DNA of 32,000 nucleotides. Source: Candidatus Kuenenia stuttgartensis. GTDB taxonomy: Bacteria > Planctomycetota > Brocadiia > Brocadiales > Brocadiaceae. The DNA is taken from assembly GCF_900232105.1 (NCBI RefSeq), contig NZ_LT934425.1, positions 3,810,001 through 3,842,000 on the forward strand, written 5' to 3'. This document shows positions 1 through 29,481 of the stretch, one piece after another. Position numbers and translations under genes: made by a program. Each line of letters starts with the position of its first letter. Position 1 is the stretch's first letter. The notes under the pieces were generated by a model. The model was not told the DNA's origin and did not search any database. It saw nothing but the letters and a program-made list of their open reading frames with translations.

Positions 1-3000
1 GTTTTTACAGTATCAGCAATTCTTTTTCTGATAGTATTTTCCATCCCATCGTTGATAGCAAGCCATGAAAACTCAAATAAACAATCATTCAAAAGCTCAA
101 TTCCGCAATCTACAATCCAAAACTTGTCCTCGACTTCGACCGGGGATCCGAAATTAGACTCGGCGGCATTTGCCCAGAAAACAAAGAAACTTCAAATACC
201 CTTCTTAGCCAATAACGGCCAGGTAGATGAACAGGTGAAATTCTATGCCAATACTTTTGGCGGAACTGTGTTCGTAACGAAGGACGGTGAGATTGTGTAT
301 TCCTTGCCGAATAATAGTTCAGATGTAGAGACGCAATGCCTTGCGTCTTCAATGCGTTCGCCCAATGGGATACACAATGCAAAATGCAAAATACAAAATA
401 CACGAAACATGTCAAATACCACAAATCGTTTATCGTGCATCTTGCATCATGAATCAAACATCCCATATTGCACCAATTGTCTTTTAGCATGCCTTGCTAA
501 ACATACCGGACGAGACACCCAGGGAGTTGCCATTAAAGAGACGCTTGTAGGCGGCAGAGTTCAGGAGATAACTGGAAATGAAAAGGCTGTAACAAAGGTG
601 AGCTATTTTAAAGGAACCGACAAATCTCAATGGAAAACCAATATTTCAGCATATGATGTAGTATCGCTTGGAGAAGTCTACGACGGTATAGAACTCAAAT
701 TAAAGGCGTATGGAAATAATGTAGAGAAGCTTTTTTGTGTAAAACCAGACGCAAACCCCGAACAAATACAGGTAAAGCTCAGTGGTGTAATAGATTTGCG
801 GGTAAATAACGAAGGACAGCTTGTGGCAGAGACAAAGCTTGGGGCGGTAAAGTTTACAAAACCCGTGGCATATCAGGAAATAAACGGCAGACGAGTGGAC
901 GTGGAATGTAAATATACGATTGCGGATTGTGGAATGCAGAATGCGGAATGTAAAACAAATCTGAAATCCGAAACCCGAAACTTGTCCTCGACTGAGATCG
1001 GGGATCCGCAATTAGAATACGGCTTCACCGTAGCAAGCTACGACTGCACAAAAGACCTCATCATCGACCCCCTGCTGGCATCCACGTACGTGGGCGGGTC
1101 TAGTAGTGGTGATTTTGGTAATTCTCTCGCCCTCGACACAAGCGGGAACGTATATGTGACGGGGTGGACTTATTCATCAGACTTTCCGACGACGAGCGGG
1201 GCTTATGATACCTCTTTTAATGGTTATATGGATGTCTTTGTCTCGAAGCTGAATAGTGGATTAACTAGTTTGCTGGCATCCACGTATCTGGGAGGGTCTG
1301 GTGGTGAGTCGGGGTATTCTCTTACCCTCGACACAAGCGGGAACGTATATGTGATGGGGTATACTGGTTCAACAGACTTTCCGACCACGAGCGGTGCTTA
1401 TGATACCTCCTATAATGGTGGTAATTATTATGGTGATGTCTTTGTCTCGAAGCTGGACAGTGGATTAACGAGCCTGCTAGCATCCACGTACCTGGGCGGG
1501 TCTAATGATGATATTGGTAATTCTCTCGCCCTTGACACAAGCGGGAATGTATATGTGACAGGGAATACTTCTTCATCAGACTTTCCTACCACGAGCGGGG
1601 CACATGATACCTCTCTTAATGGTGGTTATTATGATGTCTTTGTCTCGAAGCTGGACGGTGGACTGACGAGACTGCTGGCATCCACGTACCTGGGCGGGTC
1701 TGCTGATGATTATGGTAAATCTCTTGCCCTCGACACAAGCGGGAACGTATATGTGACGGGGAATACTCCTTCAACAGACTTTCCGACTACGAACGGGGCA
1801 TACGATACCTCTTTTAATAGCGGCAGTGCCGTCTTTATCTCGAAGCTGGACGGTGGATTAACGAGCCTGCTGGCATCCACTTTCTTGGGCGGGTTTGGTG
1901 ATGATCGGGGTTATTCTCTCAGCCTCGACACAAGCGGGAACGTATATGTGACGGGGCTTGCTGGGCCAAACTTTCCGACCACGAGCGGGGCATATGATAC
2001 CACTTTTAATGGTGGTTATGCTGCCTTTGTTTCGAAGCTGGATGGTGGATTAACGAGCCTGCTTGCTTCCACGTTCCTGGGCGGATCTAGTGAGGCTTGG
2101 GGTTATTCTCTCTCCCTCGACACAAGCGGGCGTGTATATGTGACGGGGTTTACTACGTCAACAGACTTTCCGACCACGAGCGGGGCATATGATACATCCT
2201 TTAATGGTGGTTATGATGTCTTTGTCTCGAAGCTGAACAATGGATTAACGGGCCTGCTGGCATCCACGTACCTTGGTGGGTCTGATTATGATTTTGGTAA
2301 TTCTCTTATCCTCGACACAAGCGGGCATGTATATGTGACGGGGTCTACTGGATCAACAGGCTTTCCGACGACGAGTAGTGCATATGATACCTCTCATAAT
2401 GGTGGAAGTTATAATGTCTTTGTCTCGAAGCTGGACGGTAATCTTTCTGCCTCTGCTGCAACCACACCTACCCCTTCGCCCACGCCTTCACCTGCACCAA
2501 CACCGTCTCCAACAACAAGCCCAGAGGAAGAAAACCTCCTGGAAAAATACGCGCCGATTTTGTATATGCACTCTAAGGAGCGATTACATCCTACAAATGT
2601 TAAAGTAATGTTGGAAAATTCAGAACTATACGAAAAAATATGTAAAAAAGAAAAAAAAGATGGTACGTGTAAAAAATATAAAGGAGAACAAGTAGATACA
2701 AAAGATAAAAAACTTACTACAGATTTGTTAATGAATGATTACAATATGGATGATTACAATGATGATAACTATTATTATCTTCAGCTAAAAAAGAAGGCAG
2801 AGAAGAAGGCAAAAAAGGAGGAATGGAAAGAACGACAAACTGTTTATGGCCGTAAATTTATTAGCGAAGAGGATAAAACAAAAACAGTGCTTCAATATTG
2901 GTTTTTTTATGTTTACAATGATTGGAGCGGCTCTTATGAAGGCGGTAATAAGCACGAAGGGGACTGGGAAATGATCCAGATTATTTTAGACAGCAATAAG

Positions 3001-3888
3001 CAGCCATGGAAAATTACCTATTCTTTTCATCGTGGCGGGCAAACATTCTTATGGGATGACAAAGAGGTAAGCAAAAGCGATGATGGAAATCACCCTTTGG
3101 TATATATGACTTTGGGGGGGCACGGGTGTTGGAACAAACCTGGAAATCACAAGTGGTATCAAGAACCTGCAACGTGCATGGATTGTACTGATGAGACAGC
3201 TGATAATGGTGACGTATTACATCCGGATACTATGTCTAATGCTGAAATTGATGAAATAAAAACGAGTACAAAAAAATATGCTTATGTAATTGAAGACATG
3301 ACTGATTGGACAGAGGAAAATCAAGATTGGATATATTGGAAAGGGTACTGGGGAAAGCAGACTAAAAAGAAAATGAATAACAAAAGAGATTACGATATTA
3401 TATACGGGTATAATTCCGGTCCCTCAAGTCCGCCCTACATTGATTACATAGATGATGAAATAGGTGGTCGTTGGGAAAAACCAATATTGTGGGCAACAAG
3501 TCCTAAGCCATCAGATTATGAAATTTGTGCTTCTTCCAATATCAAAATTATTGCCCATGATATAGAGGGTAATGTTTCGAACCTTTTGGATAATTGTTCG
3601 TTTGATACTTCTTGTGGTGGATGCGCAACCATTAAAATATTGTATTCAGAAAAGGACCAGATATTTGAAGTCTATTCCCTCGACGGCGAAGAAGTAACCC
3701 TGAAAATCAGCAGATACAACAGGAATACAAAGGAAGTGTGCGAAGTGGAATTTGACTGGCTTGAAATTCCCAGGAACGGCAAGGCAACACTTAGATTTTC
3801 TCCAGATGAAAACCCAAATCTTGAAATGGAAATTGACCACGACCTTAATGGAATTTTTGATTATCGTGTATCGCCAAATTATGTATAG
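1..3888 (+). CDS. Secreted SBBP beta-propeller repeat protein, paralog 1 (5' end outside window) with Vps62/DUF946-like C-terminal module
   Basis: Frame 1 is open from nt 1. VFTVSAILFLIVFSIPSLIASHE is the signal-peptide core; nt 1-188 are identical to paralog 2 (5683-5870), whose ATG lies 21 nt (7 codons) upstream of the equivalent point. There are seven ~66-aa repeats LLASTYLGGS..D.G.SLALDTSGNVYVTG.T.S.DFPTTSGAYDTS...DVFVSKL (SBBP signature). A Pro/Thr linker spans ~2455-2525. The C-terminal KYAPILYMH...YWFFYVYN...HEGDWEMIQI...HPLVYMTLGGHG resembles the Vps62/DUF946 family; the domain call is from memory and no HMM was run. Confidence 0.85.
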   Translation, partial: VFTVSAILFLIVFSIPSLIASHENSNKQSFKSSIPQSTIQNLSSTSTGDPKLDSAAFAQKTKKLQIPFLANNGQVDEQVKFYANTFGGTVFVTKDGEIVYSLPNNSSDVETQCLASSMRSPNGIHNAKCKIQNTRNMSNTTNRLSCILHHESNIPYCTNCLLACLAKHTGRDTQGVAIKETLVGGRVQEITGNEKAVTKVSYFKGTDKSQWKTNISAYDVVSLGEVYDGIELKLKAYGNNVEKLFCVKPDANPEQIQVKLSGVIDLRVNNEGQLVAETKLGAVKFTKPVAYQEINGRRVDVECKYTIADCGMQNAECKTNLKSETRNLSSTEIGDPQLEYGFTVASYDCTKDLIIDPLLASTYVGGSSSGDFGNSLALDTSGNVYVTGWTYSSDFPTTSGAYDTSFNGYMDVFVSKLNSGLTSLLASTYLGGSGGESGYSLTLDTSGNVYVMGYTGSTDFPTTSGAYDTSYNGGNYYGDVFVSKLDSGLTSLLASTYLGGSNDDIGNSLALDTSGNVYVTGNTSSSDFPTTSGAHDTSLNGGYYDVFVSKLDGGLTRLLASTYLGGSADDYGKSLALDTSGNVYVTGNTPSTDFPTTNGAYDTSFNSGSAVFISKLDGGLTSLLASTFLGGFGDDRGYSLSLDTSGNVYVTGLAGPNFPTTSGAYDTTFNGGYAAFVSKLDGGLTSLLASTFLGGSSEAWGYSLSLDTSGRVYVTGFTTSTDFPTTSGAYDTSFNGGYDVFVSKLNNGLTGLLASTYLGGSDYDFGNSLILDTSGHVYVTGSTGSTGFPTTSSAYDTSHNGGSYNVFVSKLDGNLSASAATTPTPSPTPSPAPTPSPTTSPEEENLLEKYAPILYMHSKERLHPTNVKVMLENSELYEKICKKEKKDGTCKKYKGEQVDTKDKKLTTDLLMNDYNMDDYNDDNYYYLQLKKKAEKKAKKEEWKERQTVYGRKFISEEDKTKTVLQYWFFYVYNDWSGSYEGGNKHEGDWEMIQIILDSNKQPWKITYSFHRGGQTFLWDDKEVSKSDDGNHPLVYMTLGGHGCWNKPGNHKWYQEPATCMDCTDETADNGDVLHPDTMSNAEIDEIKTSTKKYAYVIEDMTDWTEENQDWIYWKGYWGKQTKKKMNNKRDYDIIYGYNSGPSSPPYIDYIDDEIGGRWEKPILWATSPKPSDYEICASSNIKIIAHDIEGNVSNLLDNCSFDTSCGGCATIKILYSEKDQIFEVYSLDGEEVTLKISRYNRNTKEVCEVEFDWLEIPRNGKATLRFSPDENPNLEMEIDHDLNGIFDYRVSPNYV
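1072..2450 (+). repeat. Seven tandem coding repeats (~198-204 bp) = SBBP blades of paralog 1
   Basis: The recurrent DNA block ctgctggcatccacgta...gacacaagcgggaacgtatatgtgacgggg...gtctttgtctcgaagctg occurs at 1072, 1270, 1474 and onward. Confidence 0.9.
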
Positions 3889-4031: not shown

Positions 4032-4181
4032 GGGAGCATTCCCGATTTTTTGTAAAAATGTCATTAGCAGGGGGGAGGGGAAGAATAGTAACTCAAGCTT
4101 CCAGCTTGAGGGTAAAACACCACAAGCAGGATGCTTGTGGTACAATGTACAATTAGTTAACCAAAAATCGGGAATGCTCCT
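4032..4181. repeat. MITE-like element sharing only its ~20-bp termini with the 141-bp MITE at 17336-17476
   Basis: The left end is gggagcattcccgattttttgt (4032-4053). The right end is accaaaaatcgggaatgctcc (to ~4180), its imperfect reverse complement. The core holds two hairpins (ctcaagcttccagcttgag; ccacaagcaggatgcttgtgg). No clear TSD, so this is probably an older copy. Confidence 0.5.
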
Positions 4182-4219: not shown

Positions 4220-5603
4220 CATAAGCGCTAACTTGTTTTAGGTATGCTCGAAGTATTTTGATATCTGTGTTTTTCGGATTCTTGTATTTTCTGCTAAAGA
4301 ACAAGCAATGTCATTCCAGCACTTAAGAACTTCCTGTAATGATAACGCTGGTTCTATAGCCCGTTTTACTTGATTAAGCATAAAAGCAAATTCACGCCAT
4401 TTGCTTTTAGTCTTCTTGCTTGACAATGAAGTATCCCCAGGGGGAAAAAGACGTAGCAAAATCTATTAGTTTTTCTGTCAAAAGAGCAACGAATAGTTTG
4501 CCATAAAGCCAAGCTTTTGAGCTATCATCATCGTATTTAGGTAAGTGTCCAAATTGTGCTATTTGTTTAAATCTTTTAAAGACCAGTTCAATTTGCCATC
4601 GAACTCGATACCATTCTAAGATATCAAAAGCGGTAAATTGATTTTCAGGAAACGTTGTGAATACTATTACGTACTTGGCATAAATAAGGGTCTCCGGTTT
4701 TAGTTCAATGCCCTTTTTGCTTGCATGTCTTTTAAGTTTTTTATGAGCTATTTTAATGGCTTCTTCTGTTTTGTGTATTATACAAAGACGACCTTTGACA
4801 TATTCAGTATTATCAACGTTTGGAATAAAAACGTTCCATGATTTTATAGCAAGGGGTCTTTTTAAATATTGGATTTCTTTCAATAAAGGAAAGGGTTTCT
4901 TTTCTTCGCCGAATATCCGTAGAGATTGCGAATTAACTCTAACGCTAAGATAAGCGCCTTTCCTTGTTGCATGATGAATTCCTTGGCCAGTACAGTAACC
5001 TCTGTCAGCTATAATATAATCATCTTTTTTCATCGGAAACTGCCGAAAAGATTCTCCTGTGCCTTCTCCTTCAGTTCCCGTAAGTTTAAAGAAATCGCAA
5101 GATAATGAAGGAACCTCAATACTATAATGAATGCGCCAAAGACTTCCTGTTTTCCCAGGTTCCTTTACTGTTGTTGCATCAAATAAGCGAAGATGAAAAT
5201 TATTCCGTTTATTAATTTGGAGGCCACGCTCACGGAATAAAGATAAACATAATTTATATAGCCATTCTTTGCTCTTTTTTAATCGCTTTAATAAGGCAAC
5301 ATCGGATAAATCTGCTAAGTTAGCACGCTTGGCTAGAACTACTGTTTCACGCAATGAATAGCCACATCCTAAATGAATTAATAATGTTCGAAGAAGCTTT
5401 TCTTCAGATTTATCCTTGCGCAAGCCTTTTAAAGCATTTGTATCAACGGCTAAACTTTTCCAATCGTTTGGGAAGAAAGTTCTTAGAAGATCCCAATCTT
5501 CTCTCATCATGGCTTTATCCTCCTATAGAGTGATTAGCGGGATAATTAACATAAAAATACCATGATGAATAAAATTTGTCAATAAAACAAGTTAGCGCTT
5601 ATG
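4220..5603 (-). mobile_element. Intact IS4-family insertion sequence (1,384 bp)
   Basis: It has perfect 21-bp terminal inverted repeats: CATAAGCGCTAACTTGTTTTA at 4220-4240 and its reverse complement at 5583-5603. It is flanked by an 11-bp direct repeat GGTGCAGGGGG (4209-4219 and 5604-5614), read as the target-site duplication. It carries a single transposase ORF. Confidence 0.92.
4407..5510 (-). CDS. IS4-family DDE transposase
   Basis: 367 aa. It contains IADRGY and the C-terminal YRVRWQIELVFKRFK, which matches the Y-2-R-3-E-6-K signature of IS4-type transposases. Confidence 0.9.
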   Translation of the reverse strand: MMREDWDLLRTFFPNDWKSLAVDTNALKGLRKDKSEEKLLRTLLIHLGCGYSLRETVVLAKRANLADLSDVALLKRLKKSKEWLYKLCLSLFRERGLQINKRNNFHLRLFDATTVKEPGKTGSLWRIHYSIEVPSLSCDFFKLTGTEGEGTGESFRQFPMKKDDYIIADRGYCTGQGIHHATRKGAYLSVRVNSQSLRIFGEEKKPFPLLKEIQYLKRPLAIKSWNVFIPNVDNTEYVKGRLCIIHKTEEAIKIAHKKLKRHASKKGIELKPETLIYAKYVIVFTTFPENQFTAFDILEWYRVRWQIELVFKRFKQIAQFGHLPKYDDDSSKAWLYGKLFVALLTEKLIDFATSFSPWGYFIVKQED

Positions 5604-5661: not shown

Positions 5662-8600
5662 ATGATACAAAGAAATTGTGTTGTTTTTACAGTATCAGCA
5701 ATTCTTTTTCTGATAGTATTTTCCATCCCATCGTTGATAGCAAGCCATGAAAACTCAAATAAACAATCATTCAAAAGCTCAATTCCGCAATCTACAATCC
5801 AAAACTTGTCCTCGACTTCGACCGGGGATCCGAAATTAGACTCGGCGGCATTTGCCCAGAAAACAAAGAAGCTTCAAATACCCTTTATAGCCAACAACGG
5901 ACAGGTAGATGAACAGGTGAAATTCTATGCCAATACATTTGGCGGGACGGTGTTCGTGACAAAAGACGGCGAGATTGTGTATGCGTTGCCGAATAATAGT
6001 TCAGAGTCGGGAGTTCGATGTTCGAAGAATCAAGAGGCAAAATGCATGATTCAGGGTCCACGAAACATGTCAAATACCACAAATCGTTTATCGTGCATCT
6101 TGCATCATGAAGCAAACATCCCATATTGTACCAATTGTCTTTTAGCTGGCATTGCTAAGAATATCGGTCAAGACACCCAGGGAGTTGCCATTAAAGAGAC
6201 GCTTGTAGGTGGCAGAGTTCATGAGATAACTGGAAATGAAAAGGCTGTAACAAAGGTGAGCTATTTTAAGGGAAATGACACATCTCAATGGAAAACCAAT
6301 ATTTCAGCATATGATGTAGTATCGCTTGGTGAAGTCTACGACGGTATAGAACTCAAATTAAAGGCGTATGGAAATAATGTCGAGAAGCTTTTTTGTGTAA
6401 AACCAGATGCAAACCCCGATCAAATACAGGTAAAGCTCAGTGGTGCAAAAGATTTGCGTGTAAATGACGAAGGGCAGCTTGAAGCAGAAACGGAATTGGG
6501 GATGGTTAAGTTTACAAAACCCATAGCATATCAGGAAATCGATGGGAATCGGGTGGCGGTAGATGTTGAATACGACATTCAGAATCCAGAAGTCGGGAGA
6601 CGGAATCAAAAAATTCCAAATTGGAAATCAGCAAGCTACAATAAAACACGGACAAAAAAGTTTGTCCATTCCACCCATAAACACAATCCAAATTCTGAAA
6701 TCCAAAATCCAAAATTGGAGTACGGCTTCAAAGTCGCCTCTTACGACAAAACATATGAACTAATCATCGACCCCCTACTAGCCTCCACATACCTAGGCGG
6801 GTCTGATAATGATTATGTTTATTCCCTTGCCCTCGATACGAGCGGGAATGTATATGTGACGGGGTATACCAAGTCATCAAACTTTCCTACGACGAGCGGG
6901 GCATATGATACCTCTTTTACTGGTGGTAATTATCAGGAACATGTCTTTGTCTCGAAGCTGGACGGTGGATTAACGAGCCTGCTGGCATCCACGTTCCTGG
7001 GCGGGTCTGATTATAATTGTGGTTATTCTCTAGCCCTCGACACAAGCGGGAATGTATATGTGACGGGGAAGACCGGGTCATCAGACTTTCCTACGACGAG
7101 CGGGGCATATGATACCTCTTTTACTGGTGGTAATTATCAGGAACATGTCTTTGTCTCGAAGCTGGACGGTGGATTAACGAGCCTGCTGGCATCCACGTTC
7201 CTGGGAGGGTCTGGTCAGGATTATGGTTATTCCCTCGCCCTCGACACGAGCGGGAATGTATATGTGACGGGGTATACTATGTCATCAGACTTTCCGACGA
7301 CGAGTGGGGCATATGATACCTCTCAAACTGGTTCTTCTGATGTCTTTGTCTCGAAGCTGAACAGTGGATTAACGAGCCTGCTGGCATCCACGTACCTGGG
7401 CGGGTCTAGTGATGATTATGGTTATTCCCTCGCCCTCGATACGAGCGGGAATGTATATGTGACGGGGTATACTAAGTCATCAGACTTTCCGACGATGAGT
7501 GGGGCATATGATACATCTTTGAGTCAAACTGGTTCTCATGATGTCTTTGTCTCGAAGCTGAACAGTGGATTAACGAGCCTGCTGGCATCCACGTACCTGG
7601 GCGAGCCTGGTTATAATGAGGGTCGTTCTCTTGCCCTCGACACGAGCGGGAATGTATATGTGACGGGGTATACTATGTCACCACTCTTTCCGACTACGAG
7701 CGGGGCATATGACACCTCTTATAATTATGGTTATGATGTCTTTGTATCTAAGCTGGACGGTGGATTAACGAGCCTGCTGGCATCCACGTATCTGGGCGGG
7801 CTTAGTGATGATTATGGTTATTCCCTCGCCCTCGACACGAACGGGAATGTGTATGTGACGGGGCAAACTGAGTCATCACGCTTTCCGACTACGAGGGGTG
7901 CATATGATACTTCCGATAGTGATGATTCTGATGTCTTTGTCTCGAAGCTGAACAGTGGATTAACGAGCCTGCTGGCATCCACGTACCTGGGCGGGTCTAA
8001 TGATGATGAGGGTTATTCTCTCGTCCTAGACACAAGCGGGAATGTATATGTAACGGGTTGGACTAGCGGAGGAGGCTTTCCGACTACGAGTGGGGCATAT
8101 GATACCTCTTATTATTATGGTTATGATGTCTTTGTATCTAAGCTGGACGGCAATCTTTCTGCCACATCAGCAACACCAACACCAACACCAACACCAACAC
8201 CAACACCAACACCAACTCCAACTACGTGTACTGACAGCTACGAGCCTAACAACAGTACGTCTGAAGCTTACGGACCTTTGCGTTCTGGATCGAGTTACAG
8301 TGGCAAGATTTGCTCGGATAGTGACGTGGATTGGTTTAAGGTGAATATAACAATCGAAGGTACAATATCACTGTCCTTAACGGTTCCGTCTTCCAATGAT
8401 TATGAATTAGAGCTGTATGATGCTTCTTATGCGAAAATCGTCAGTTCTACTAATGGGAGTGGTGTGAGCGAGTCGATTGACTACGATGCCACTTCAACGG
8501 GAAATTACTATATCAAGATATACGGATTCAGTGGCTCATCGAATACTACAAATTCATATACACTCACCTATACGTATACGTCTAAGACAACACCAACCCC

Positions 8601-8910
8601 TACAACAACGCTTACTCCAGGTGGTCACACTGCTGCCTTATCTGTAAGTCCGTCAGAAGTATCTCTATATGATTCTGTTGTAGTAACAGTCGTGGATTGG
8701 GATTTAAATACAACCAGTAGCTATGCCGATACTGGAAATGTGAGAATTAAATCAAATTCAGATACAACAGGCTTCTATCTTGGGTTAATGGAAATGAATG
8801 TGAACTCTGGCAGTTTTAAGGGTACATTCGTGACGGGCGATACGACAGACTTGTCTGCATCTCCTCGAAAAATAGGTGTTGGAGTAAATGATACTATAAC
8901 TGTGTCTTAG
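5662..8910 (+). CDS. SBBP beta-propeller repeat protein, paralog 2, 5' portion (truncated by MITE-created stop); includes PPC (pre-peptidase C-terminal)-like domain
   Basis: ATG 5662 is preferred over the track start 5605: GGAGG lies at 5652-5656 and the product starts MIQRNCVVFTVSAILFLIVFSIPSLIA, a signal peptide. There are seven SBBP blades (6775-8160) and a (TP)n linker. CTDSYEPNNS...DVDWFKV...YYIKIYGFSG is PPC-like, followed by an Ig-like module. The stop TAG 8908-8910 is built from the target TA plus the first G of the inserted element. Confidence 0.85.
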   Translation: MIQRNCVVFTVSAILFLIVFSIPSLIASHENSNKQSFKSSIPQSTIQNLSSTSTGDPKLDSAAFAQKTKKLQIPFIANNGQVDEQVKFYANTFGGTVFVTKDGEIVYALPNNSSESGVRCSKNQEAKCMIQGPRNMSNTTNRLSCILHHEANIPYCTNCLLAGIAKNIGQDTQGVAIKETLVGGRVHEITGNEKAVTKVSYFKGNDTSQWKTNISAYDVVSLGEVYDGIELKLKAYGNNVEKLFCVKPDANPDQIQVKLSGAKDLRVNDEGQLEAETELGMVKFTKPIAYQEIDGNRVAVDVEYDIQNPEVGRRNQKIPNWKSASYNKTRTKKFVHSTHKHNPNSEIQNPKLEYGFKVASYDKTYELIIDPLLASTYLGGSDNDYVYSLALDTSGNVYVTGYTKSSNFPTTSGAYDTSFTGGNYQEHVFVSKLDGGLTSLLASTFLGGSDYNCGYSLALDTSGNVYVTGKTGSSDFPTTSGAYDTSFTGGNYQEHVFVSKLDGGLTSLLASTFLGGSGQDYGYSLALDTSGNVYVTGYTMSSDFPTTSGAYDTSQTGSSDVFVSKLNSGLTSLLASTYLGGSSDDYGYSLALDTSGNVYVTGYTKSSDFPTMSGAYDTSLSQTGSHDVFVSKLNSGLTSLLASTYLGEPGYNEGRSLALDTSGNVYVTGYTMSPLFPTTSGAYDTSYNYGYDVFVSKLDGGLTSLLASTYLGGLSDDYGYSLALDTNGNVYVTGQTESSRFPTTRGAYDTSDSDDSDVFVSKLNSGLTSLLASTYLGGSNDDEGYSLVLDTSGNVYVTGWTSGGGFPTTSGAYDTSYYYGYDVFVSKLDGNLSATSATPTPTPTPTPTPTPTPTTCTDSYEPNNSTSEAYGPLRSGSSYSGKICSDSDVDWFKVNITIEGTISLSLTVPSSNDYELELYDASYAKIVSSTNGSGVSESIDYDATSTGNYYIKIYGFSGSSNTTNSYTLTYTYTSKTTPTPTTTLTPGGHTAALSVSPSEVSLYDSVVVTVVDWDLNTTSSYADTGNVRIKSNSDTTGFYLGLMEMNVNSGSFKGTFVTGDTTDLSASPRKIGVGVNDTITVS
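6775..8160 (+). repeat. Seven tandem SBBP blade repeats of paralog 2
   Basis: Same ~198-bp coding unit as 1072-2450. Blocks 6905-7085 and 7085-7265 are nearly identical at the DNA level. Confidence 0.9.
8171..8212 (+). repeat. (CAACAC)7 hexanucleotide microsatellite encoding a (TP)n linker
   Basis: Seven perfect CAACAC units read directly. The unit length is a multiple of 3, so copy-number change keeps the frame. Confidence 0.9.
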
Positions 8911-9008
8911 GCACTGTAAATAAATAAAGGTATCAAGTAGATCAATTTCATGCTCTGGAAACATGCAATCAAGGCTTCAAAGTGAGACGTTAATTTATTT
9001 ACAGCGCC
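8910..9008 (+). mobile_element. 99-bp MITE, copy 1 (TIR GGCRCTGTAAATAAAT, TSD TTA)
   Basis: The termini GGCACTGTAAATAAAT...ATTTATTTACAGCGCC are inverted. TTA is duplicated at 8907-8909 and 9009-9011. The sequence is the exact reverse complement of 14170-14268 (99/99, checked base by base). Confidence 0.85.
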
Positions 9009-9387
9009 TTACTCAGATAATCTAGATGCTGATGGTAATAGCACAACAATAACAAATACGGTTTCAGTAACGGGTACAACTGGAACACCAACCCCTACAA
9101 CAACGACAGAACCAAAGGTTGCGGCAGGGGATTCACACACCCTTGCCCTAAAGTATGACGGCACAGTCTGGACATGGGGACATAATGGGGATGGGCAATT
9201 AGGGGATGGAACATTTACCAACAGGACTACTCCTGTTCAGGTAAACGACCTCAGTGACGTCATTGCCATTGATGGTGGACAGCATCATCACAGCCTTGCA
9301 GTAAAATCGGATGGTACCGTATGGGCGTGGGGGCATAATGATGATGGTCATCTGGGAGATAGAACGTACACAAACAGAAGTTCCCCC

Positions 9388-10521
9388 GTGAAGGTAACTG
9401 ATCTCAGTGGTGCTATCGCAGTTGCTGGTGGAGATTCACACAGTCTAGCCTTGAAATCAGATGGTACCGTATGGGCGTGGGGAGCGAACTGGTATGGACA
9501 ATTAGGAGATGGTACAACCGCAGACAGCACTACACCTGTTCAGGTAAGTAACCTCAGCGATGTTATTGCCATTGCTGGGGGTGATAATCACAGCCTTGCT
9601 TTAAAGTACGATGGTACTGTCTGGGCATGGGGTGAAAATGCTTATGGTAAATTGGGAGACGAGACAGAAACGAATAGAACTGCACCCGTGCAGGTAGGCA
9701 GCCTCAGCAATGTTAATGCCATAGCAGTTGGCGACCAGCACAGTCTGGCACTAAAATCAGACGGCACGGTCTGGGCATGGGGAAATAACGAAGGCGGTCA
9801 ATTGGGAGACGGAACAACTACAAATAGAAATACACCCATACAAGTGAATTTCTACGGCCAGTATATTACTACGATCGCGGCTGGATATAAGCATAACCTT
9901 GCTGTGGATTCAGAAGGTTATGCTTGGGCGTGGGGGTATGGTTGGGATGGTCAGTTGGGAGACGGGGCTAACGCAGATAGCTACATTCCTGTGCAAGTGA
10001 TAGGACTTCGCTTTGTTACGGCCATTGTAGCTGGCGATTGGCATAGCATTGCCGTGAAGTCAGACGGCACGGTCTGGGCATGGGGGTATAATGGGGATGG
10101 TGAACTGGGAGACGGTACAACCTCAAGCAGAAGCACCCCGGCTCAGGTTGATATTAATTTAGGTCAGGCATCAGATTGTGGCGAGACTAATATAATGAGC
10201 TGGTCTGCCGCCAAATTGAAAATTAAAAGAAAGAAAAGTAAAGATATAACCATAACAGCCGCTCAAGGTGATGTGATAGAAGATGATAATACCATTTTTA
10301 AATGTCCCGTTGAAGGCCTGACGGTTACTGCAGTTGTTGATAGTAAAACTGAAGGAAAGAAGCTCATATCGGTTTCACCAACAAGCGCTGTAACTGATGA
10401 AAACGGTGATGTGACGTTCACGATAAAAGCCAAGAATAAAAAGGGAAATGCAAAGGTCTATTTTTCAATAGAAGAATGGGGTGAGTGGGTAACTACGGAA
10501 TTATCAGTAAAGGTAAGGTAA
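9388..10521 (+). CDS. RCC1-repeat (7 blades) plus Ig-like domain; orphaned 3' portion of SBBP paralog 2
   Basis: The track ORF starts at GTG 9388, but the same frame is open and homologous from 9010 (YSDNLDADGNSTTITNTVSVTG..., with the first RCC1 blade at ~9118). There are seven repeats of G(D)xHSLALKSDGTVWAWGxNxxGQLGDG. This is the same frame (frame 1) as 5662-8910, and no plausible start/RBS exists near 9010. Confidence 0.8.
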   Translation: MKVTDLSGAIAVAGGDSHSLALKSDGTVWAWGANWYGQLGDGTTADSTTPVQVSNLSDVIAIAGGDNHSLALKYDGTVWAWGENAYGKLGDETETNRTAPVQVGSLSNVNAIAVGDQHSLALKSDGTVWAWGNNEGGQLGDGTTTNRNTPIQVNFYGQYITTIAAGYKHNLAVDSEGYAWAWGYGWDGQLGDGANADSYIPVQVIGLRFVTAIVAGDWHSIAVKSDGTVWAWGYNGDGELGDGTTSSRSTPAQVDINLGQASDCGETNIMSWSAAKLKIKRKKSKDITITAAQGDVIEDDNTIFKCPVEGLTVTAVVDSKTEGKKLISVSPTSAVTDENGDVTFTIKAKNKKGNAKVYFSIEEWGEWVTTELSVKVR

Positions 10522-10716
10522 CTAATCCATGATATTTGTAATACATATCGGATATAATTTTGACGTAGGAAAATTTTCTGCTATCGAGTGCAGTGAAATG
10601 AGGGAAGGATAAGGGAAATTTATTCGCACAGGTTTCATGGTATTTTTTAACTTGTCAATTCATCTTAAAAAAGAAGGGGAAAAAGCCATGAAAAGAATTG
10701 CTTATAAAATGGTGGG

Positions 10717-10788
10717 TGAATTAGGGGACACTTCCCATATTTCTTGATTGATCTGGTGGAATAATAAGGGAAGTGTCCCTATATTTCT
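10717..10788. repeat. Hairpin repeat unit 1 (GGGGACACTTCCC-N31-GGGAAGTGTCCC)
   Basis: The arms at 10723-10735 and 10767-10778 are reverse complements. The unit shares GAATTAGGG.ACAC...CCCATATTTCTT...TGGTGG..AATAAGGGA...CCTATATTTC with unit 3. Confidence 0.7.
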
Positions 10789-10975
10789 CGGAGAGGGCGA
10801 AATCTGTAATCGTATAAGTAGAAAGAGAAAAACGGTAGAACTATGCGGTGTCGTCGGAGTTAAGAGTGACGGTATGACTGTAAAAGGTATATAAATGAAC
10901 TTGGGATGTCTAATTATTCAGGTTGATGACCGTAACGCAACAAGGAATTGTTACGGCTAATAGGGATAACTTCAG

Positions 10976-11041
10976 TATTGAGACACTTCCCGTATTTCAG
11001 AAGTTAATCTGGGAAGTGTCCCTCTATTCCCCCTCTATTCC
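10976..11041. repeat. Hairpin repeat unit 2 (GAGACACTTCCC-N19-GGGAAGTGTCCC)
   Basis: The arms lie at 10980-10991 and 11011-11022. The tail CCCTCTATTC is duplicated in tandem (11021-11041). Confidence 0.65.
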
Positions 11042-11092
11042 CTATAGTTAAAGGGAATATTAAGTGAACTTCGGCGGGAATAAATTATTGGA

Positions 11093-11168
11093 GAATTAGG
11101 GACACAGCCCATATTTCTTACTTTATTTGGTGGGGAAATAAGGGATATTTCCTATATTTCTATATTTT
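11093..11168. repeat. Hairpin repeat unit 3 (degenerate copy)
   Basis: The sequence is GAATTAGGGACACAGCCCATATTTCTT...TTTGGTGGGGAAATAAGGGATATTTCCTATATTTC. The arms have diverged, so stem pairing is largely lost. Confidence 0.55.
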
Positions 11169-11243: not shown

Positions 11244-14183
11244 ATGCTAATAAAACATCCTTTAAAGAAAAGGCTTATTAAATCTGTTTTGTTATTAATG
11301 GGACTGGTAATAGCGCTAACCCTTTACCCATTGACCAAAAACAACTCAAACCTTGCTAATGATCAGGATATAGTCAGCAATTCAAATATCCTATACCTCT
11401 CAACTATCAATCCTGGTAAGGATTGGCAGACTACCATAAGCATTACAAACTCAGAATGTAAATGCAAACAGAGAAGGGTTAACGCAACGCTTACCGCATA
11501 CGACAAAGATGGTTTATCCCTTGAGGTTATTAAAAACGTTATTAGGCTTAGAGCAAATAAAACAAAGACCTTTCATTCTCAAACATTACCCACCGATGCT
11601 GAATCCTTAAGGGTTGAGTCAAATGGCAGCATTATATGCAATGCAATTTTCAAAACACGTGATGGCACAAAATCAGAGGTAGTCCCTGCCATCAAAGAAT
11701 CATCCAGACAGCTCGATTTCCCGGCGCTGCTCAGTTACGATGACCTCTATATATACAAGACCATTACCCTTTTAAACCCAAACACAAACCCCGCAAGTAT
11801 TGATATTGTAGCCTTGGATAAGGACGGATATGAGATAGACCTTAATGATTTACCATCCCTTTCGTCAATGGAAAGCAAAACCTTCTCCCTCGTGGATATC
11901 TTTGACCCAAGAATATTAAAAGACCTGTCAACGGTGAGGGTCAATTCAGATAGTAATATTATTGGACTTCAGCTTGTGGACTATCCCGCGGTTGACCTTG
12001 TTGGGCTTCCGGCCCTGACCACCACCAGCAAGGGCTGGACGTTTCCAATAGCAACCAAAGGAGAAAACTTCGATTTGTGGACAAAAGTGGGTATTTTAAA
12101 TCCTTGTAATAACATAGCCAATGTTATCATTGAGGCATTTGATACCAGCAGTAACTCACTGGGGATTATCCATAGTCAAACCATTTTGCCGGGTGTAACC
12201 TATGTTATCAATACCGCTAATATTGATACTATCGAGGGAGATGCCATACCTTCAAATACCGCTATTCTCAAGATCACTTCTACCCAGTCTGTAATTGGGT
12301 ATGAAGTCATTGGTGTTCTAAATGGCAGCGGTCTTTCAGCAGTTATGGGGATTCCTGACGAAGACCAAACTTCGGTGGGATTTGAGCTAATCGGTTCAAT
12401 GGACGGAGAGGTGCTTAATACCTATTCAATGATGCGGATGGGCGATGGGAGCGTGAAGTCAACGGTTGGGAGTTTGGGGAGTGAAGAATGGAGAAAAAAT
12501 GTAAACATAATACCCGACACCTCAGAAATAATCTCTGCACCAACAGCAGTCAGTGAAATAAATGAAAATGAATGTGTTCCTCCAAAACAACTTAATTCAA
12601 AATACTGGCTGGGATTTCCACTTAAATACCCGCCTTCTAAAAACTGGACTCCATACACTGCCAATATAACCAGTGTTTTTGACCATGCTATGAAAACACT
12701 GGATGGAAAGAATCATGTGGTGGCATATACGGGGGAAGGAGGTTCTAAGAAAGCAGATGGTACATGTGATAAAAATGGTAATGGATGCGGTTATAAGAAA
12801 AGCGATGAAAGCCCATTTATTATAAACAATCATTATGTAGGCGTTAAATCGTCCGGCAGCGCAACGGTTTTACAGTACGATGATCATCGGGGATACGATT
12901 ACCCTGTTAGAGAAGAGCGTGTCTATGCTGCGGCTGATGGATGTGTTCATAAGGCACAATGGGATAAGGAAAATGGTGTGGAAAATGGTGGTGGTTATTA
13001 TATAAAGATAAAGCATAACACAAGCAATGGTGTCTACTATACTAGTTATCTCCATTTAAAAAAAGATTCTTTTCGGGTGGGTAAGGGTGACACTGTGACG
13101 GCAGGACAATGGATTGCCGTATCAGGTAATACAAGTACAAGTACAAGTGGCGAAACATTCCCCTATCACCTTCATTTCGAAGTGAGAAAAACTTATGATC
13201 TACAAGGGAATGTTGTTGACCCCTATGGCTGGCATCCATCGGTAAAAACTGATGATCCATACACAGGAAAAAAGAAAGAAACCCTTTGGGAGGCGGCAAC
13301 TGAACTTCCACAAATTACCTCAATAAGTCCTTCAAGTGAAGGTGCTGGCACTTCAGTAACGATAACGGGCAAGAGATTTGGTGCTGGAGCAGGTACGGTA
13401 AAATTTGGTACGGTAAAAGCCGAGGTCACTTCATGGGGTGATACTGAAATAGTTGCGACTGTGCCTGATGGTAATGGAGAAGTATATGTAAGGGTGACAA
13501 CTGCCGGAGAAGAAACAGCAGTAACAAGCACAGGAGATGATGATGAAGAGAAATATGTATTTACATACACATCATCACCAACTACTTGTATTGCGACAGT
13601 TTCTTCAGGTCAGTGGAAGGGAGAATACTACAACAACAAGGATTTAAGCGGCAGTCCAGTCATGACAAGGGACGATGGAAGCGGGAATCTCAATTTCGAC
13701 TGGGGTAGTGGTAGTCCAAATAGCTCTAGCCCTTGTGTCATAGGCACTGATGATTTTTCCGTTCGCTGGACGAGGACGGTTTCTTTCGATGCAAACACCT
13801 ATCGTTTCAAGGTAACGTGTGACGATGGTTTCAGACTTTACATAGATGGCATTTCGAAGCTTGAGAAATGGATCGATCAAGGCTCAACAGAGTACACGGT
13901 GGATGTATCACTTTCGTCAGGGAAACACACTATAAAACTGGAGTACTATGAGGCTGGCGGGGGCGCAGTTGCGAAACTATCATGGGAGGTGGCATCATCT
14001 ACAATTTCCGTTACTTCTTTTAAAATCAACAACGATGCATCCAGCACAACGAGTCGGACGGTAACGCTGAATAATATGGCAACGGGTAGTCCTACACAAT
14101 ATATGGCAAGTGAATCATCCAGTTTTAGCGACGCCAGTTGGCAGACGTACTCAGTGAGTCCAAGCTTTAGGCGCTGTAAATAA
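11244..14183 (+). CDS. Secreted multidomain M23 metallopeptidase / IPT-TIG / PA14 protein, 5' portion (truncated by MITE)
   Basis: AGGAGG lies 6 nt upstream of the ATG, and there is an N-terminal hydrophobic anchor. An approximately threefold ~110-aa N-terminal module is followed by M23 motifs HRGYD (HxxxD) and YHLHFE (HxH). The IPT/TIG-like segment is ITSISPSSEGAGTSVTITGKRFG. The first PA14 domain is QWKGEYYNN...DDFSVRWTRT...KLEYYEAGGGAVAKLSWE. The ORF ends 4 codons into the MITE (RRCK*). Confidence 0.85.
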   Translation: MLIKHPLKKRLIKSVLLLMGLVIALTLYPLTKNNSNLANDQDIVSNSNILYLSTINPGKDWQTTISITNSECKCKQRRVNATLTAYDKDGLSLEVIKNVIRLRANKTKTFHSQTLPTDAESLRVESNGSIICNAIFKTRDGTKSEVVPAIKESSRQLDFPALLSYDDLYIYKTITLLNPNTNPASIDIVALDKDGYEIDLNDLPSLSSMESKTFSLVDIFDPRILKDLSTVRVNSDSNIIGLQLVDYPAVDLVGLPALTTTSKGWTFPIATKGENFDLWTKVGILNPCNNIANVIIEAFDTSSNSLGIIHSQTILPGVTYVINTANIDTIEGDAIPSNTAILKITSTQSVIGYEVIGVLNGSGLSAVMGIPDEDQTSVGFELIGSMDGEVLNTYSMMRMGDGSVKSTVGSLGSEEWRKNVNIIPDTSEIISAPTAVSEINENECVPPKQLNSKYWLGFPLKYPPSKNWTPYTANITSVFDHAMKTLDGKNHVVAYTGEGGSKKADGTCDKNGNGCGYKKSDESPFIINNHYVGVKSSGSATVLQYDDHRGYDYPVREERVYAAADGCVHKAQWDKENGVENGGGYYIKIKHNTSNGVYYTSYLHLKKDSFRVGKGDTVTAGQWIAVSGNTSTSTSGETFPYHLHFEVRKTYDLQGNVVDPYGWHPSVKTDDPYTGKKKETLWEAATELPQITSISPSSEGAGTSVTITGKRFGAGAGTVKFGTVKAEVTSWGDTEIVATVPDGNGEVYVRVTTAGEETAVTSTGDDDEEKYVFTYTSSPTTCIATVSSGQWKGEYYNNKDLSGSPVMTRDDGSGNLNFDWGSGSPNSSSPCVIGTDDFSVRWTRTVSFDANTYRFKVTCDDGFRLYIDGISKLEKWIDQGSTEYTVDVSLSSGKHTIKLEYYEAGGGAVAKLSWEVASSTISVTSFKINNDASSTTSRTVTLNNMATGSPTQYMASESSSFSDASWQTYSVSPSFRRCK

Positions 14184-14268
14184 ATTAACGTCTCACTTTG
14201 AAGCCTTGATTGCATGTTTCCAGAGCATGAAATTGATCTACTTGATACCTTTATTTATTTACAGTGCC
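14170..14268 (-). mobile_element. 99-bp MITE, copy 2 (inverted relative to copy 1)
   Basis: It is the exact reverse complement of 8910-9008. TTA is duplicated at 14167-14169 and 14269-14271. Confidence 0.85.
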
Positions 14269-16529
14269 TTACCTTGAGTTCAGGTAATGGAAATAAGACC
14301 GTATACTTTAAGGTTAAAAACAGTGCTAATACTGAATCATCAGTGGTGAGTGACAGTATTACCCTGAGTGAGTCTACTTCCTGCACTGCGGCAGTTTCTT
14401 CAGGTCAGTGGAAGGGGGAATACTACAACAATAAGAATTTAAGCGGCAGTCCAGTCATGACAAGAGACGATGGAAGCAGGAATCTCAATTTCGATTGGGG
14501 CAGCGGAAGTCCAAGCAGTTCGTGTGGTATAAATAGTGACGATTTCTCAGTTCGCTGGACGAGGACGGTTTCTTTCGATGCCAACACCTATCGCTTCACG
14601 GTAACGTGTGATGATGGTTTCAGACTTTACATAGATGGCATTTCGAAGCTTGAGAAATGGATCGATCAAGGCTCAACAGAGTACACGGTGGATGTATCAC
14701 TTTCGTCAGGAGATCACACTATAAAACTGGAGTACTATGAGGCTGGCGGGGGCGCAGTTGCCAAACTATCCTGGGAGAAAGTATCCAGCAATTCCTGCAC
14801 AGCCACAGTCTCTTCAGACCGATGGAAGGGAGAATATTACAACAACAAGGATTTAAGCGGCAGTCCAGTCATGACAAGAGACGATGGAAGCGGGAATCTC
14901 AATTTCGACTGGGGTAGCGGAAGTCCAAGCAGTTCGTGTGGTATAAATAGTGACGATTTCTCAGTTCGCTGGACGAGGACGGTTTCTTTCGATGCCAACA
15001 CCTATCGCTTCACGGTAACGTGTGATGATGGTTTCAGACTTTACATAGATGGCATTTCGAAGCTTGAGAAATGGATCGATCAAGGCTCAACAGAGTACAC
15101 GGTGGATGTATCACTTTCGTCAGGGAATTACACCATAAAAATGGAGTACTATGAAGCTGATGGGGGCGCTGTCGCGAAACTATCATGGGAGGTGGCATCA
15201 TCTGGTAGTGTGCCTGGCAGCATTACCGACCTTACAGCAACGCCTGAGTGTGATGGCACTGCGTCTCAGGTACGGCTGAACTGGTCTGCGGCAAGTAACG
15301 CAACCTCGTATGACGTCTACCGCAACGGCAGTTTGTATTACAGTGGGGTATCAGGGACACAATTCATAAATAGTTCCAATATTACAACTGGAATGTCTTA
15401 TTCTTACTACGTTCAGGCCAAGAACTCTTATGGTTTTACTAACTCCAATACTGTTTCTGCAACGGCAATAACTTGTGTCAGCAATATGCCTGGCAGCATT
15501 ACTGACCTTACGGCCACAGCTGAGTGTGATGGTACAACTTCTCAGATACGGCTGAACTGGTCTGCGGCAAGTAACGCAACCTCGTATGATGTCTACCGCA
15601 ACGGCAGTTTGTATTACAGTGGGGTATCAGGGACACAATTCATAAATAGTTCCAATATTACAACTGGAATATCTTATTCTTACTACGTTCAGGCCAAGAA
15701 CTCTTATGGTTCTACCAACTCCAATACTGTTTCTGCAACGGCAATAACTTGTGTCAGCAATATGCCTGGCAGCATTACTGACCTTACGGCCACAGCTGAG
15801 TGTGATGGCACAACTTCTCAGATACGGCTGAATTGGTCTGCTGCAAGCAATGCAACCTCGTATGATGTCTACCGCAACGGCAGTTTGTATTACAGTGGGG
15901 TATCAGTGACACAGTTCATCAATAGTTCCAATATTACAACGGGAACGTCTTATTCTTACCATGTCCAGGCCAAGAACTCTTATGGTTCTACTAACTCCAA
16001 TACTGTTTCGGCAACGGCGAAAACTTGCGGCGGGTCTACCAGTCAATCAGAGCGCATTACTAACGGCAGCTTTTCTTCCGGTACAAGCGGATGGACGCTA
16101 TCGAGTGATTTTTGGGCAGGCACAAATCTTTCTAACTATCGCACCTCACCGGGCTATGCAGCGGGAGGCGTAGACAGTAGTGGAACGCCAAAAAACAATG
16201 CGTATGGTTCCATGTACCAAGCAGTAACTATCCCATCCAATGCAACTTCGGCCACTATCAGTTTTTGGTATAACATAACAACATCAAATGAATCAGGATA
16301 TGATGCGCTCTACACAGTTATCAAAAATTCTTCGGGGAGTCATTTAGCAACAGTTGCTACCTTCAGCAATGCCGATAAAGGAACATTAGGAAGTTACAGC
16401 AAAAAAAGCCTTGATGTAACCTCATACAAAGGGCAGACCGTCACAATATATTTTCTGGCAATGACTGATTCTGCTAATACTACGGTATTCAGAATTGACG
16501 ATGTCAGCCTTATGTCTGATGGAAATTAA
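14214..16529 (+). CDS. 3' portion of the M23/PA14 protein: 2x PA14, 3x FN3-like, C-terminal CBM/galactose-binding-like domain
   Basis: The track ATG 14214 lies inside the MITE and has no SD. Genuine coding sequence resumes at 14272 (TLSSGNGNKTVYFKVKN) in the same frame (frame 3) as 11244-14183. There are two PA14 copies, three 92-aa repeats PGSITDLTATAECDGT..IRLNWSAASNATSYDVYRNG, and a terminal NGSFSSGTSGW...VFRIDDVSL jelly-roll-like domain. Confidence 0.8.
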   Translation: MFPEHEIDLLDTFIYLQCLTLSSGNGNKTVYFKVKNSANTESSVVSDSITLSESTSCTAAVSSGQWKGEYYNNKNLSGSPVMTRDDGSRNLNFDWGSGSPSSSCGINSDDFSVRWTRTVSFDANTYRFTVTCDDGFRLYIDGISKLEKWIDQGSTEYTVDVSLSSGDHTIKLEYYEAGGGAVAKLSWEKVSSNSCTATVSSDRWKGEYYNNKDLSGSPVMTRDDGSGNLNFDWGSGSPSSSCGINSDDFSVRWTRTVSFDANTYRFTVTCDDGFRLYIDGISKLEKWIDQGSTEYTVDVSLSSGNYTIKMEYYEADGGAVAKLSWEVASSGSVPGSITDLTATPECDGTASQVRLNWSAASNATSYDVYRNGSLYYSGVSGTQFINSSNITTGMSYSYYVQAKNSYGFTNSNTVSATAITCVSNMPGSITDLTATAECDGTTSQIRLNWSAASNATSYDVYRNGSLYYSGVSGTQFINSSNITTGISYSYYVQAKNSYGSTNSNTVSATAITCVSNMPGSITDLTATAECDGTTSQIRLNWSAASNATSYDVYRNGSLYYSGVSVTQFINSSNITTGTSYSYHVQAKNSYGSTNSNTVSATAKTCGGSTSQSERITNGSFSSGTSGWTLSSDFWAGTNLSNYRTSPGYAAGGVDSSGTPKNNAYGSMYQAVTIPSNATSATISFWYNITTSNESGYDALYTVIKNSSGSHLATVATFSNADKGTLGSYSKKSLDVTSYKGQTVTIYFLAMTDSANTTVFRIDDVSLMSDGN
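14382..15209 (+). repeat. Two tandem 414-bp PA14-coding repeats (third, more distant copy at ~13587-14000)
   Basis: Copies start at tgcac... 14382 and 14796. Long stretches are identical, for example gatgatggtttcagactttacatagatggcatttcgaagcttgagaaatggatcgatcaaggctcaacagagtacacggtggatgtatcactttcgtcagg. Confidence 0.9.
15212..16039 (+). repeat. Three tandem 276-bp FN3-like coding repeats
   Basis: gcctggcagcattac starts at 15212, 15488 and 15764, giving a period of exactly 276 bp. Copies 2 and 3 are nearly identical. Confidence 0.9.
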
Positions 16530-16615: not shown

Positions 16616-16917
16616 CAAAAGGGGTTACACCTTGATTAGTGATTTAATTTCTTCTAATCGTTTATTAATTTCATTTTCTTCAGATATCTTTGATTTCATA
16701 ATAGTTACTCGCCAACTTATGGAAGAATAACCAAGACCAAACAAATTCCCGATTTCCTGGTTATTAAAAATATTCCTTCGCTCATTTTCTCGTGATAAGA
16801 TGTGATAGTAAGCCACTTCAAATTCTATGCGCCATTGTCTTGTCATGTCAGACAAGATAGCAAAATTACCTTCTATTGCCAACAGCATAATCACTAATCA
16901 AGGTGTGACCCCTTTTG
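16616..16917. mobile_element. ~300-bp element bounded by 27-bp inverted repeats, enclosing a deleted RayT/IS200-like ORF
   Basis: The left arm CAAAAGGGGTTACACCTTGATTAGTGA (16616-16642) and right arm TCACTAATCAAGGTGTGACCCCTTTTG (16891-16917) pair at 26/27. A partial extra copy of the outer arm (AATGAACAAAAGGGGT) sits directly in tandem at 16592-16607. Confidence 0.6.
16625..16846 (-). pseudogene. Internally deleted Y1 (IS200-like / REP-associated, RayT-type) transposase remnant
   Basis: MTRQWRIEFEVAYYHILSRENERRNIF matches the conserved N-terminus of RayT-like proteins (xRxxRIExxGAxYHVxxRGNxRxxIF). It joins directly to a C-terminal HTH-like tail (EIGNLFGLGYSSISWRV). The catalytic HUH/Tyr core is absent. 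Family recognition is from memory only. Confidence 0.5.
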
Positions 16918-27887: not shown

Positions 27888-27929
27888 ACAAGGGGAGCAT
27901 TCACAAATATTTGTAGATTCCTCATTCTT

Positions 27930-29025: not shown

Positions 29026-29101
29026 TAGTCAAAAGCATTTATTTTTATAAAAACCTGTTTTTTTCTTGCATTTGAAGTGTTTCTGGAGTATTAAATTCTG
29101 C

Positions 29102-29305
29102 ATGAATCCATTTCTCAGTGAAAAAACCCGAATAGAACTTAAAAAAGTACATAAGAAAGAGCCTCATAGACATCATGCCGACCGAATCAAAGCGATACTT
29201 CTTCTTGATTCAGGATGGAGTTATGAAGAAGTAGCAGAAGCGCTCTTGTTAGACGATCAAACAATCAGGAATTACGAAAAACTATACAAAGATAAAGGTT
29301 TTTGA
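29102..29305 (+). pseudogene. IS630-family transposase fragment 1 (N-terminal HTH)
   Basis: MNPFLSEKTRIELKKVHKKEPHRHHADRIKAILLLDSGWSYEEVAEALLLDDQTIRNYEKLYKDKG is the typical IS630 N-terminus. It is followed by stops and frame changes at 29306-29481. Confidence 0.75.
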
Positions 29306-29481
29306 CGGGATTTTATCTGACAATTATATTGGCTGTATGCCAAAACCCACCTGCGAACAAGAAGAACAATTAAAAGATCATATCAGGAAAAAACAACTAT
29401 AGCGTGGCAAAATAAATTGTTGAATATGTAAAACAAACATTCAATAAAATCTATACACCCGAAGGAGATAAGATACTTTTT

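Follow-up and report, generated by a model that had tools for sequence, protein, structure and literature searches.

Two adjacent giant cell-surface protein genes of Candidatus Kuenenia stuttgartensis, hereafter genes A and B, are each split by a copy of the same 99-bp sequence. Both lie in the window analysed here, a 32,000-nt stretch of contig NZ_LT934425.1 (assembly GCF_900232105.1, positions 3,810,001 to 3,842,000 of the forward strand), whose first letter is position 1 in all coordinates given below. Copy A occupies positions 8910-9008 on the plus strand; copy B, which is 100 % identical to it and has the opposite orientation, lies 5.2 kb away at 14170-14268 on the minus strand. The trinucleotide TTA stands on either side of copy A (8907-8909 and 9009-9011), and copy B has TTA flanks of its own (14167-14169 and 14269-14271). 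An earlier note on this stretch had described copy A as a miniature inverted-repeat transposable element (MITE) with imperfect 16-bp terminal repeats and a TTA duplication, and all of its coordinates proved correct, while the second, identical copy had escaped it.

Structure of the element and of the split genes

The ends of copy A, GGCACTGTAAATAAAT and the reverse complement of GGCGCTGTAAATAAAT, match at 15 of 16 positions. Its terminal inverted repeats (GGCRCTGTAAATAAAT) reach 26 nt within the element, the left one at 8910-8935 on the plus strand and the right one at 8983-9008 (GGCGCTGTAAATAAATTAACGTCTCA on the minus strand), and with the flanking A/T included the arms extend to 27 nt and are 85 % complementary. 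The 16-mer end has four exact matches in the window, and five when up to three mismatches are allowed, against 0.65 expected; none of 100 shuffled sequences reached five. The element is non-coding and holds stops in all six frames when read in its coding context. As RNA it would fold into a hairpin of −27.8 kcal/mol (z = −3.9). Rfam gave no match at gathering score in the window, with sub-threshold chance hits only over the element, and scans for promoters and terminators around both copies returned nothing above chance.

Element and duplication together measure 102 bp, a multiple of three, so that at both sites the reading frame continues unchanged from one half of the gene to the other. The 5′ fragment of gene A (5662-8910, plus strand) encodes 1082 amino acids (aa) comprising a signal-like N-terminus, a DUF7948 domain, seven SBBP repeats and most of one immunoglobulin (Ig)-like domain. 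It ends at a premature TAG (8908-8910) made of the TA of the target and the G that is the first base of the element, as the earlier note had read it. The 3′ fragment (9012-10521, plus strand) carries the last one and a half strands of the Ig-like domain, a Thr/Pro linker, seven RCC1 repeats and a C-terminal region. When the 102 bp are taken out, 5605/5662-8909 and 9012-10521 form a single open frame, which has 1604 codons if counted from GTG 5605 and encodes 1585 aa if started at ATG 5662. It reads ...GVNDTITVS/YSDNLDADGNS... across the junction (slash), in agreement with the reconstruction first proposed. A Pfam scan (E ≤ 0.001) of gene A returned DUF7948 and seven SBBP repeats upstream of the insertion and seven RCC1 repeats downstream of it; the seven SBBP and seven RCC1 stretches named beforehand thus stand, while the labels 'PPC' and 'C-terminal Ig domain' were left unconfirmed at this threshold.

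The 5′ fragment of gene B (11244-14183, plus strand; 979 aa) encodes peptidase M23, TIG and PA14 domains and ends in ...SPSF-RRCK at a TAA (14181-14183) located four codons inside copy B. Its 3′ fragment (14272-16529, plus strand) continues in the same frame with two PA14 domains, three fn3-like repeats and a C-terminal domain, and gene callers start its product at ATG 14214 within the MITE, giving a protein of 771 aa. Once the 102 bp are removed, the rejoined gene B is an open reading frame (ORF) of 1727 aa with the architecture M23/TIG/PA14/fn3. Each insertion brings more than one in-frame stop into the reading frame of its gene, and the stop made at the junction varies with the phase and orientation of the insertion: it is TAG in gene A, and in gene B translation ends at the internal TAA.

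Empty and filled sites in other strains

Public assemblies covering this region were reached through the neighbouring deoxyhypusine-synthase-like protein (18434-19525, minus strand), whose gene appears in the literature as KsCSTR_24080, kuste3921 and KSMBR1_3542, tags that assign the locus to K. stuttgartiensis. A 631-kb Kuenenia contig of assembly GCA_048500235.1 (L056) aligns with the window over 15.3 kb at 99.93 % identity, a figure that rises to 99.96 % for the 5.2 kb between the two elements. At either site this contig is shorter by exactly 102 bp and has a single TTA (...ACTGTGTCTTACTCAGATAATC... at empty site A and ...CCAAGCTTTACCTTGAGTTC... at empty site B). A single uninterrupted gene of 1514 aa spans site A there, and the gene at site B is called as one protein of 1727 aa, the length of our reconstruction. 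Site B is also empty in assembly GCA_046052845.1 (L062). The difference between filled and empty sites, 102 bp = 99 + 3, establishes a 3-bp duplication with flanks TTA...TTA.

Conversely, assemblies GCA_027493735.1 (L057) and GCA_900232175.1 (L058) carry both insertions, positioned as they are in the window, and the same 1082-aa product of gene A is called in both. The 771-aa product that depends on the MITE for its start occurs on three contigs, among them one of more than 1 Mb, and the flanking single-copy protein was found in 83 indexed blocks. Because the insertions are present in three independent assemblies (the window, L057 and L058), they are not an assembly artefact, and because some Kuenenia assemblies are empty at these sites while others are filled, both insertions are real, recent and polymorphic between strains. 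The two outcomes that the earlier note had named as fatal to its proposal, a natural gene end at site A and an error of assembly, are thereby both set aside.

Domain continuity across the junctions

The sequences flanking each insertion belong to conserved domains, neither of which is modelled by Pfam. The rejoined module of about 120 aa around junction A matches 225 representative proteins, some of which contain more than 30 tandem copies. Junction A falls at residues 100/101 of this module, and 417 of 493 domain matches span it (positions 92-108). It is crossed in 145 of 150 representative homologues, where the motif GDTiTVsY/xDxxDaxG is contiguous, and this bears out the claim that an Ig-like module had been cut in half. 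An AlphaFold model built on the alignment of this module (predicted local distance difference test 91.7; predicted template modelling score 0.85) is an eight-strand beta-sandwich in which the junction lies within the predicted strand 96-103, the last strand being encoded 3′ of the MITE. The nearest solved structure to this model is an Ig-like domain of the S-layer protein of Nitrosopumilus maritimus (8c8k_A; template modelling score 0.81, root-mean-square deviation 2.1 Å, E = 1e-8). According to the model, then, insertion A would break a beta-strand of an Ig-like, S-layer-type domain.

At junction B, eight homologues of up to 80 % identity were retrieved, seven of which are continuous as ...WQTYSxxPSF/TLSSGNGxKTVYFKVK...; the eighth (P0123) diverges upstream of the junction. 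A search of PDB sequences with junction B matched only nanobodies, and these at chance level. The search with the whole rejoined gene A returned no full-length orthologue, its matches being confined to the DUF7948 and SBBP half. SBBP and RCC1 repeats do occur together in one protein in P0017 and P0031.

These data bear directly on the proposal that each pair of ORFs represents naturally separate genes, with the 99-mer as an intergenic palindromic repeat, of the kind of repetitive extragenic palindromes or bacterial interspersed mosaic elements, or as a terminator hairpin. The strong hairpin of the element and the annotation of four genes in L057 and L058 would fit such an arrangement. In a strain 99.9 % identical to the window, each site nevertheless holds one TTA and lies in one unbroken gene, the conserved domains are cut mid-strand, and no terminator-like site was found around either copy. 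The empty sites refute the proposal, and we grant it practically no probability.

Gene B itself is rich in internal repeats. Three tandem fn3-like repeats of 276 bp (15211-16038) are 88-95 % identical to one another, and its PA14 modules (13589-15091) reach 95 % identity. The counterparts of gene B differ in length, with 1445 aa in L062 and more than 1619 aa in L061, which indicates that the number of repeats varies between strains.

Relationship to ISAzo13-family insertion sequences

We scanned 185,579 species genomes for the end sequence GGCRCTGTAAATAAATWAA and obtained 53 loci, no Kuenenia contig being among them. Several of these loci (L003, L045, L053 and L006) are elements of about 1293-1297 bp bounded by GGCRCTGTAAATAAATWAA and its inverse. 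In L003 and L045 (about 1293 bp), the left end reproduces the first 27 nt of the MITE (GGCACTGTAAATAAATAAAGGTATCAA) without a mismatch; L053 and L006 have their terminal 16-19 nt in common with it. The 403-aa proteins encoded by all four elements are ISAzo13-family transposases: that of L003 scores 585 bits against NF033519 (cut-off 200), PF07592 is matched with E = 1.3e-137 in L003 and 1.5e-136 in L045, and the L053 transposase is 87 % identical to that of L003 (tblastn). Many of the other GGCRCTGTAAATAAATWAA hits lie about 80-140 nt from contig ends, as expected of a repeated insertion sequence (IS), and internally deleted ISAzo13 derivatives in L051 and L002 are possible intermediates between full-length elements and MITEs. 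All 32 flanks of family ends that were inspected abut either TTA (16) or TAA (16). This pattern agrees with the 3-bp duplications that ISAzo13 elements are reported to make (PMC10045372), as do their eukaryotic relatives, the Zator elements (PMC5718144, PMC10045372). The ISAzo13 clade is very common, with at least 8000 proteins at E ≤ 1e-30, the top 120 of which are all at least 86 % identical.

We conclude, with a probability of roughly 0.9, that the 99-bp sequence is a non-autonomous MITE derived from an ISAzo13 element, presumably moved in trans and inserted at TWA targets (W, A or T), where it splits genes A and B. In every feature tested it is a textbook MITE, and it is derived from ISAzo13.

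A superfamily other than ISAzo13 with a TWA or TA target might also have given rise to the element, either IS5/PIF-Harbinger ('Tourist'-like) or IS630/Tc1-mariner ('Stowaway'-like). Duplications of 3 bp with the sequence TTA/TAA are characteristic of PIF/Harbinger and some subgroups of IS5. There is moreover a weak similarity between the ISAzo13 transposase profile and IS630, and IS630-type fragments lie at 29.1-29.8 kb of the window. All the full-length elements found with these ends (L003, L045, L053 and L006) nevertheless encode an ISAzo13 transposase, where an IS5/PIF origin would call for one of the DDE_Tnp_1/4 type, while the empty sites show a duplication of 3 bp instead of the 2-bp TA that IS630/Tc1-mariner would leave. 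An origin from one of these superfamilies is accordingly very unlikely.

Several observations weigh against an ISAzo13 origin as formulated here. A tblastn search of the window revealed no ISAzo13-type transposase gene, in agreement with the earlier statement that no parent transposase with matching ends is present there. Between the Kuenenia group 9 transposase (the KsCSTR_25380 group) and the clade with ends matching those of the MITE, identity is only 45 %. The subterminal part of the right repeat (TTAACGTCTCA) is specific to the MITE and unlike the right ends of the full-length elements found. Finally, among 11 complete family elements from other genomes, 3 are bordered by TTA at one end but by TAA at the other, a pattern that a simple duplication model does not predict. 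Such unequal flanks were seen at L003 (142-1434), L053 and L050 (367-466); the target may thus not always supply the central base of the 'duplication', and recombination between copies or the carry-over of a donor base are possible sources of the mismatch.

As for a helper, none of the matches listed in a search with the ISAzo13 transposase profile, which came from metagenome contigs, was labelled Kuenenia. According to Table S8 of PMC7709395, ISAzo13-family transposases are present in all three Kuenenia strains compared; that table gives four to five full copies per strain for group 9 and one full copy, in MBR1 only, for group 32. It is possible that these resident copies serve as helpers for the MITE.

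Other copies and relatives of the element

The metagenome scan with the MITE-specific right end identified only two loci (L054 and L055), both in the metagenome assembly JAANMU01, which carry the same subtype at 99-100 % identity. The L054 copy (6827-6925) occupies the very 3′ terminus of a recG-like gene, where the junction again makes a TAG from the TA of the target and the G of the element. The L055 copy lies near the 3′ end of a 628-aa ORF, has TAA/TAA flanks and differs by one mismatch. The expectation that other copies of the 99-mer would also be bordered by duplications is thus borne out by 3-bp TTA or TAA flanks.

More distant relatives, alignable without gaps and 80-89 % identical, were found in metagenome-assembled genomes labelled Brocadiaceae (L028), Sulfuricella (L036) and Gammaproteobacteria (L012). 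Their contigs have a G+C content of 44-61 %, against 36 % for the element. The four family members aligned (the window copy, L012, L028 and L036) are all exactly 99 bp long. In a Gallionella metagenome-assembled genome, a 494-bp derivative (L017, 3271-3764) has both MITE ends around an unrelated GC-rich palindromic insert, which indicates that these ends can carry passenger DNA.

As an alternative, the interruptions might be functional, either as a reversible ON/OFF switch operated by precise excision or through read-through or ribosomal bypass of the hairpin that would yield a full-length protein. The insertion of 102 bp keeps the frame in both genes, the four aligned members are all exactly 99 bp, both insertions lie in variable surface-protein genes, and L056 could in principle be a precise-excision revertant. 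These points are countered by the presence of more than one in-frame stop per insertion, since frame preservation is without effect once stops are present, and by the failure to find an Rfam or recoding signal. Insertion into genes is also expected by chance, given that the coding density of Kuenenia is about 81 % (PMC5854607); for the same reason, it is unsurprising that all four young copies lie in ORFs. We consider a functional role of this kind extremely improbable.

We also entertain a broader scenario in which a size-constrained 99-bp MITE, 80-89 % identical between hosts with its interior included, spreads horizontally with the abundant ISAzo13 clade. Its activity in Kuenenia, perhaps selected or perhaps the result of a local hop, would have knocked out two adjacent adhesin-like proteins in some bioreactor lineages. 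This scenario is speculative and, on balance, unlikely. Were it true, the 5.2-kb segment between the identical inverted copies could be inverted, or mobilized as a composite unit.

Other elements and repeats in the window

The only intact IS in the window, at 4220-5603, is complete and belongs to the IS4 family. Its terminal inverted repeats are perfect over 21 bp (CATAAGCGCTAACTTGTTTTA), it is bordered by an 11-bp duplication (GGTGCAGGGGG), and it encodes, on the minus strand, a transposase of 367 aa. In size and name it agrees with the 'IS4-like ISCku3' of PMC7709395. Its ends are unrelated to those of the MITE, which rules it out as the parent. It lies only about 58 bp upstream of ATG 5662, and may therefore have separated gene A from its promoter as well.

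Gene A has a tandem paralogue, another DUF7948 and SBBP gene, at the start of the window (1-3888, compared with 5662-8200 for the corresponding part of gene A). The 5′ parts of the two genes are 92-96 % identical in DNA (1-300 versus 5683-5982, and 379-678 versus 6037-6336), while their C-terminal halves are unrelated and the RCC1 part is missing from the first gene. This mosaic suggests a recent duplication or gene conversion, and the pair fits the theme of 'hybrid surface protein genes' developed in PMC7709395.

The 720-bp gap between genes A and B contains, at 10708-11152, several copies of a palindromic repeat (GGGACACTTCCC...GGGAAGTGTCC), among them a direct pair (10725-10778 and 11099-11152) and an inverted pair (10708-10741 and 11006-11039). 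Two intergenic copies (4033-4180 and 17336-17476), with partial similarity at 27893-27926, represent another MITE-like family, of about 145 bp; its arms (GGAGCATTCCCGATTTTTTGT) are 92-95 % complementary, and it is also present in L056, where the alignment is free of gaps. A further candidate for a non-autonomous element lies just downstream of gene B: a stretch of about 300 bp (16616-16917) that has inverted repeats of 29 nt (CAAAAGGGGTTACACCTTGATTAGTGATT, 97 % complementary) at its ends. IS630-type remnants occupy approximately 29100-29820, and their counterpart in L056 is annotated with a 112-aa DDE_3 (PF13358) fragment and a 67-aa ORF with HTH_23/HTH_29.

A model for the interruption of two surface-protein genes

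The MITE keeps only the putative transposase-recognition ends and about 45 bp of filler, and an ISAzo13-type DDE transposase encoded elsewhere would move it in trans through these common ends. Integration at T-W-A with a cut staggered by 3 nt would then generate the 3-bp duplication, TTA in the present case. Two copies, still identical, have landed in opposite orientations, one in each of the adjacent surface-protein genes. Each gene is thereby cut down to an N-terminal part, which retains the export signal and ends inside a broken beta-sandwich domain: the product of gene A would be truncated after residue 1082, inside a predicted beta-strand, and that of gene B after residue 975 plus the residues RRCK, inside a conserved domain. 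The 3′ remnants have neither a signal peptide nor a promoter-like site above chance, and are for that reason probably not made or not exported, and so non-functional.

Bacterial MITEs derived from IS elements include the Correia elements of Neisseria, RUP of Streptococcus pneumoniae and Nezha of cyanobacteria. Like them, the 99-bp element is short and non-coding, has terminal inverted repeats and a target-site duplication, occurs in several near-identical copies, shares its ends with an autonomous IS, splits genes and varies between strains. It differs from them in having an ISAzo13 parent and in that its copies lie inside genes or at their 3′ ends instead of being intergenic. With Tourist-type MITEs of the PIF/Harbinger superfamily it has in common a small size and the 3-bp TWA (TTA/TAA) duplication, whereas the transposase family tied to its ends is ISAzo13 and not IS5/PIF. 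Compared with ISAzo13 elements themselves (PF07592, 'Rhodopirellula transposase DDE domain'; NF033519), the MITE has the same left 27 nt, 3-bp duplication and GG start, but lacks a transposase gene, measures 99 bp instead of about 1293 bp and has a different right subterminal sequence. Zator elements, which we liken to it by description only, are relatives of ISAzo13 with the same length of duplication (PMC5718144, PMC10045372), and differ in being eukaryotic and autonomous. In the literature that could be searched, we found neither an earlier ISAzo13 MITE nor any MITE in Kuenenia.

The event described here is of an ordinary kind and reveals no new type of system. It does provide a base-pair account of why some K. 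stuttgartiensis assemblies list four annotated genes where others have two very large surface-protein genes, and it offers a specific mechanism by which the surface-protein plasticity described for this species (PMC7709395) can arise. For the poorly studied ISAzo13 family, the clean pair of filled and empty sites fixes the 3-bp TWA target, and the 99-bp element identified here as a non-autonomous partner is suited to transposition assays.

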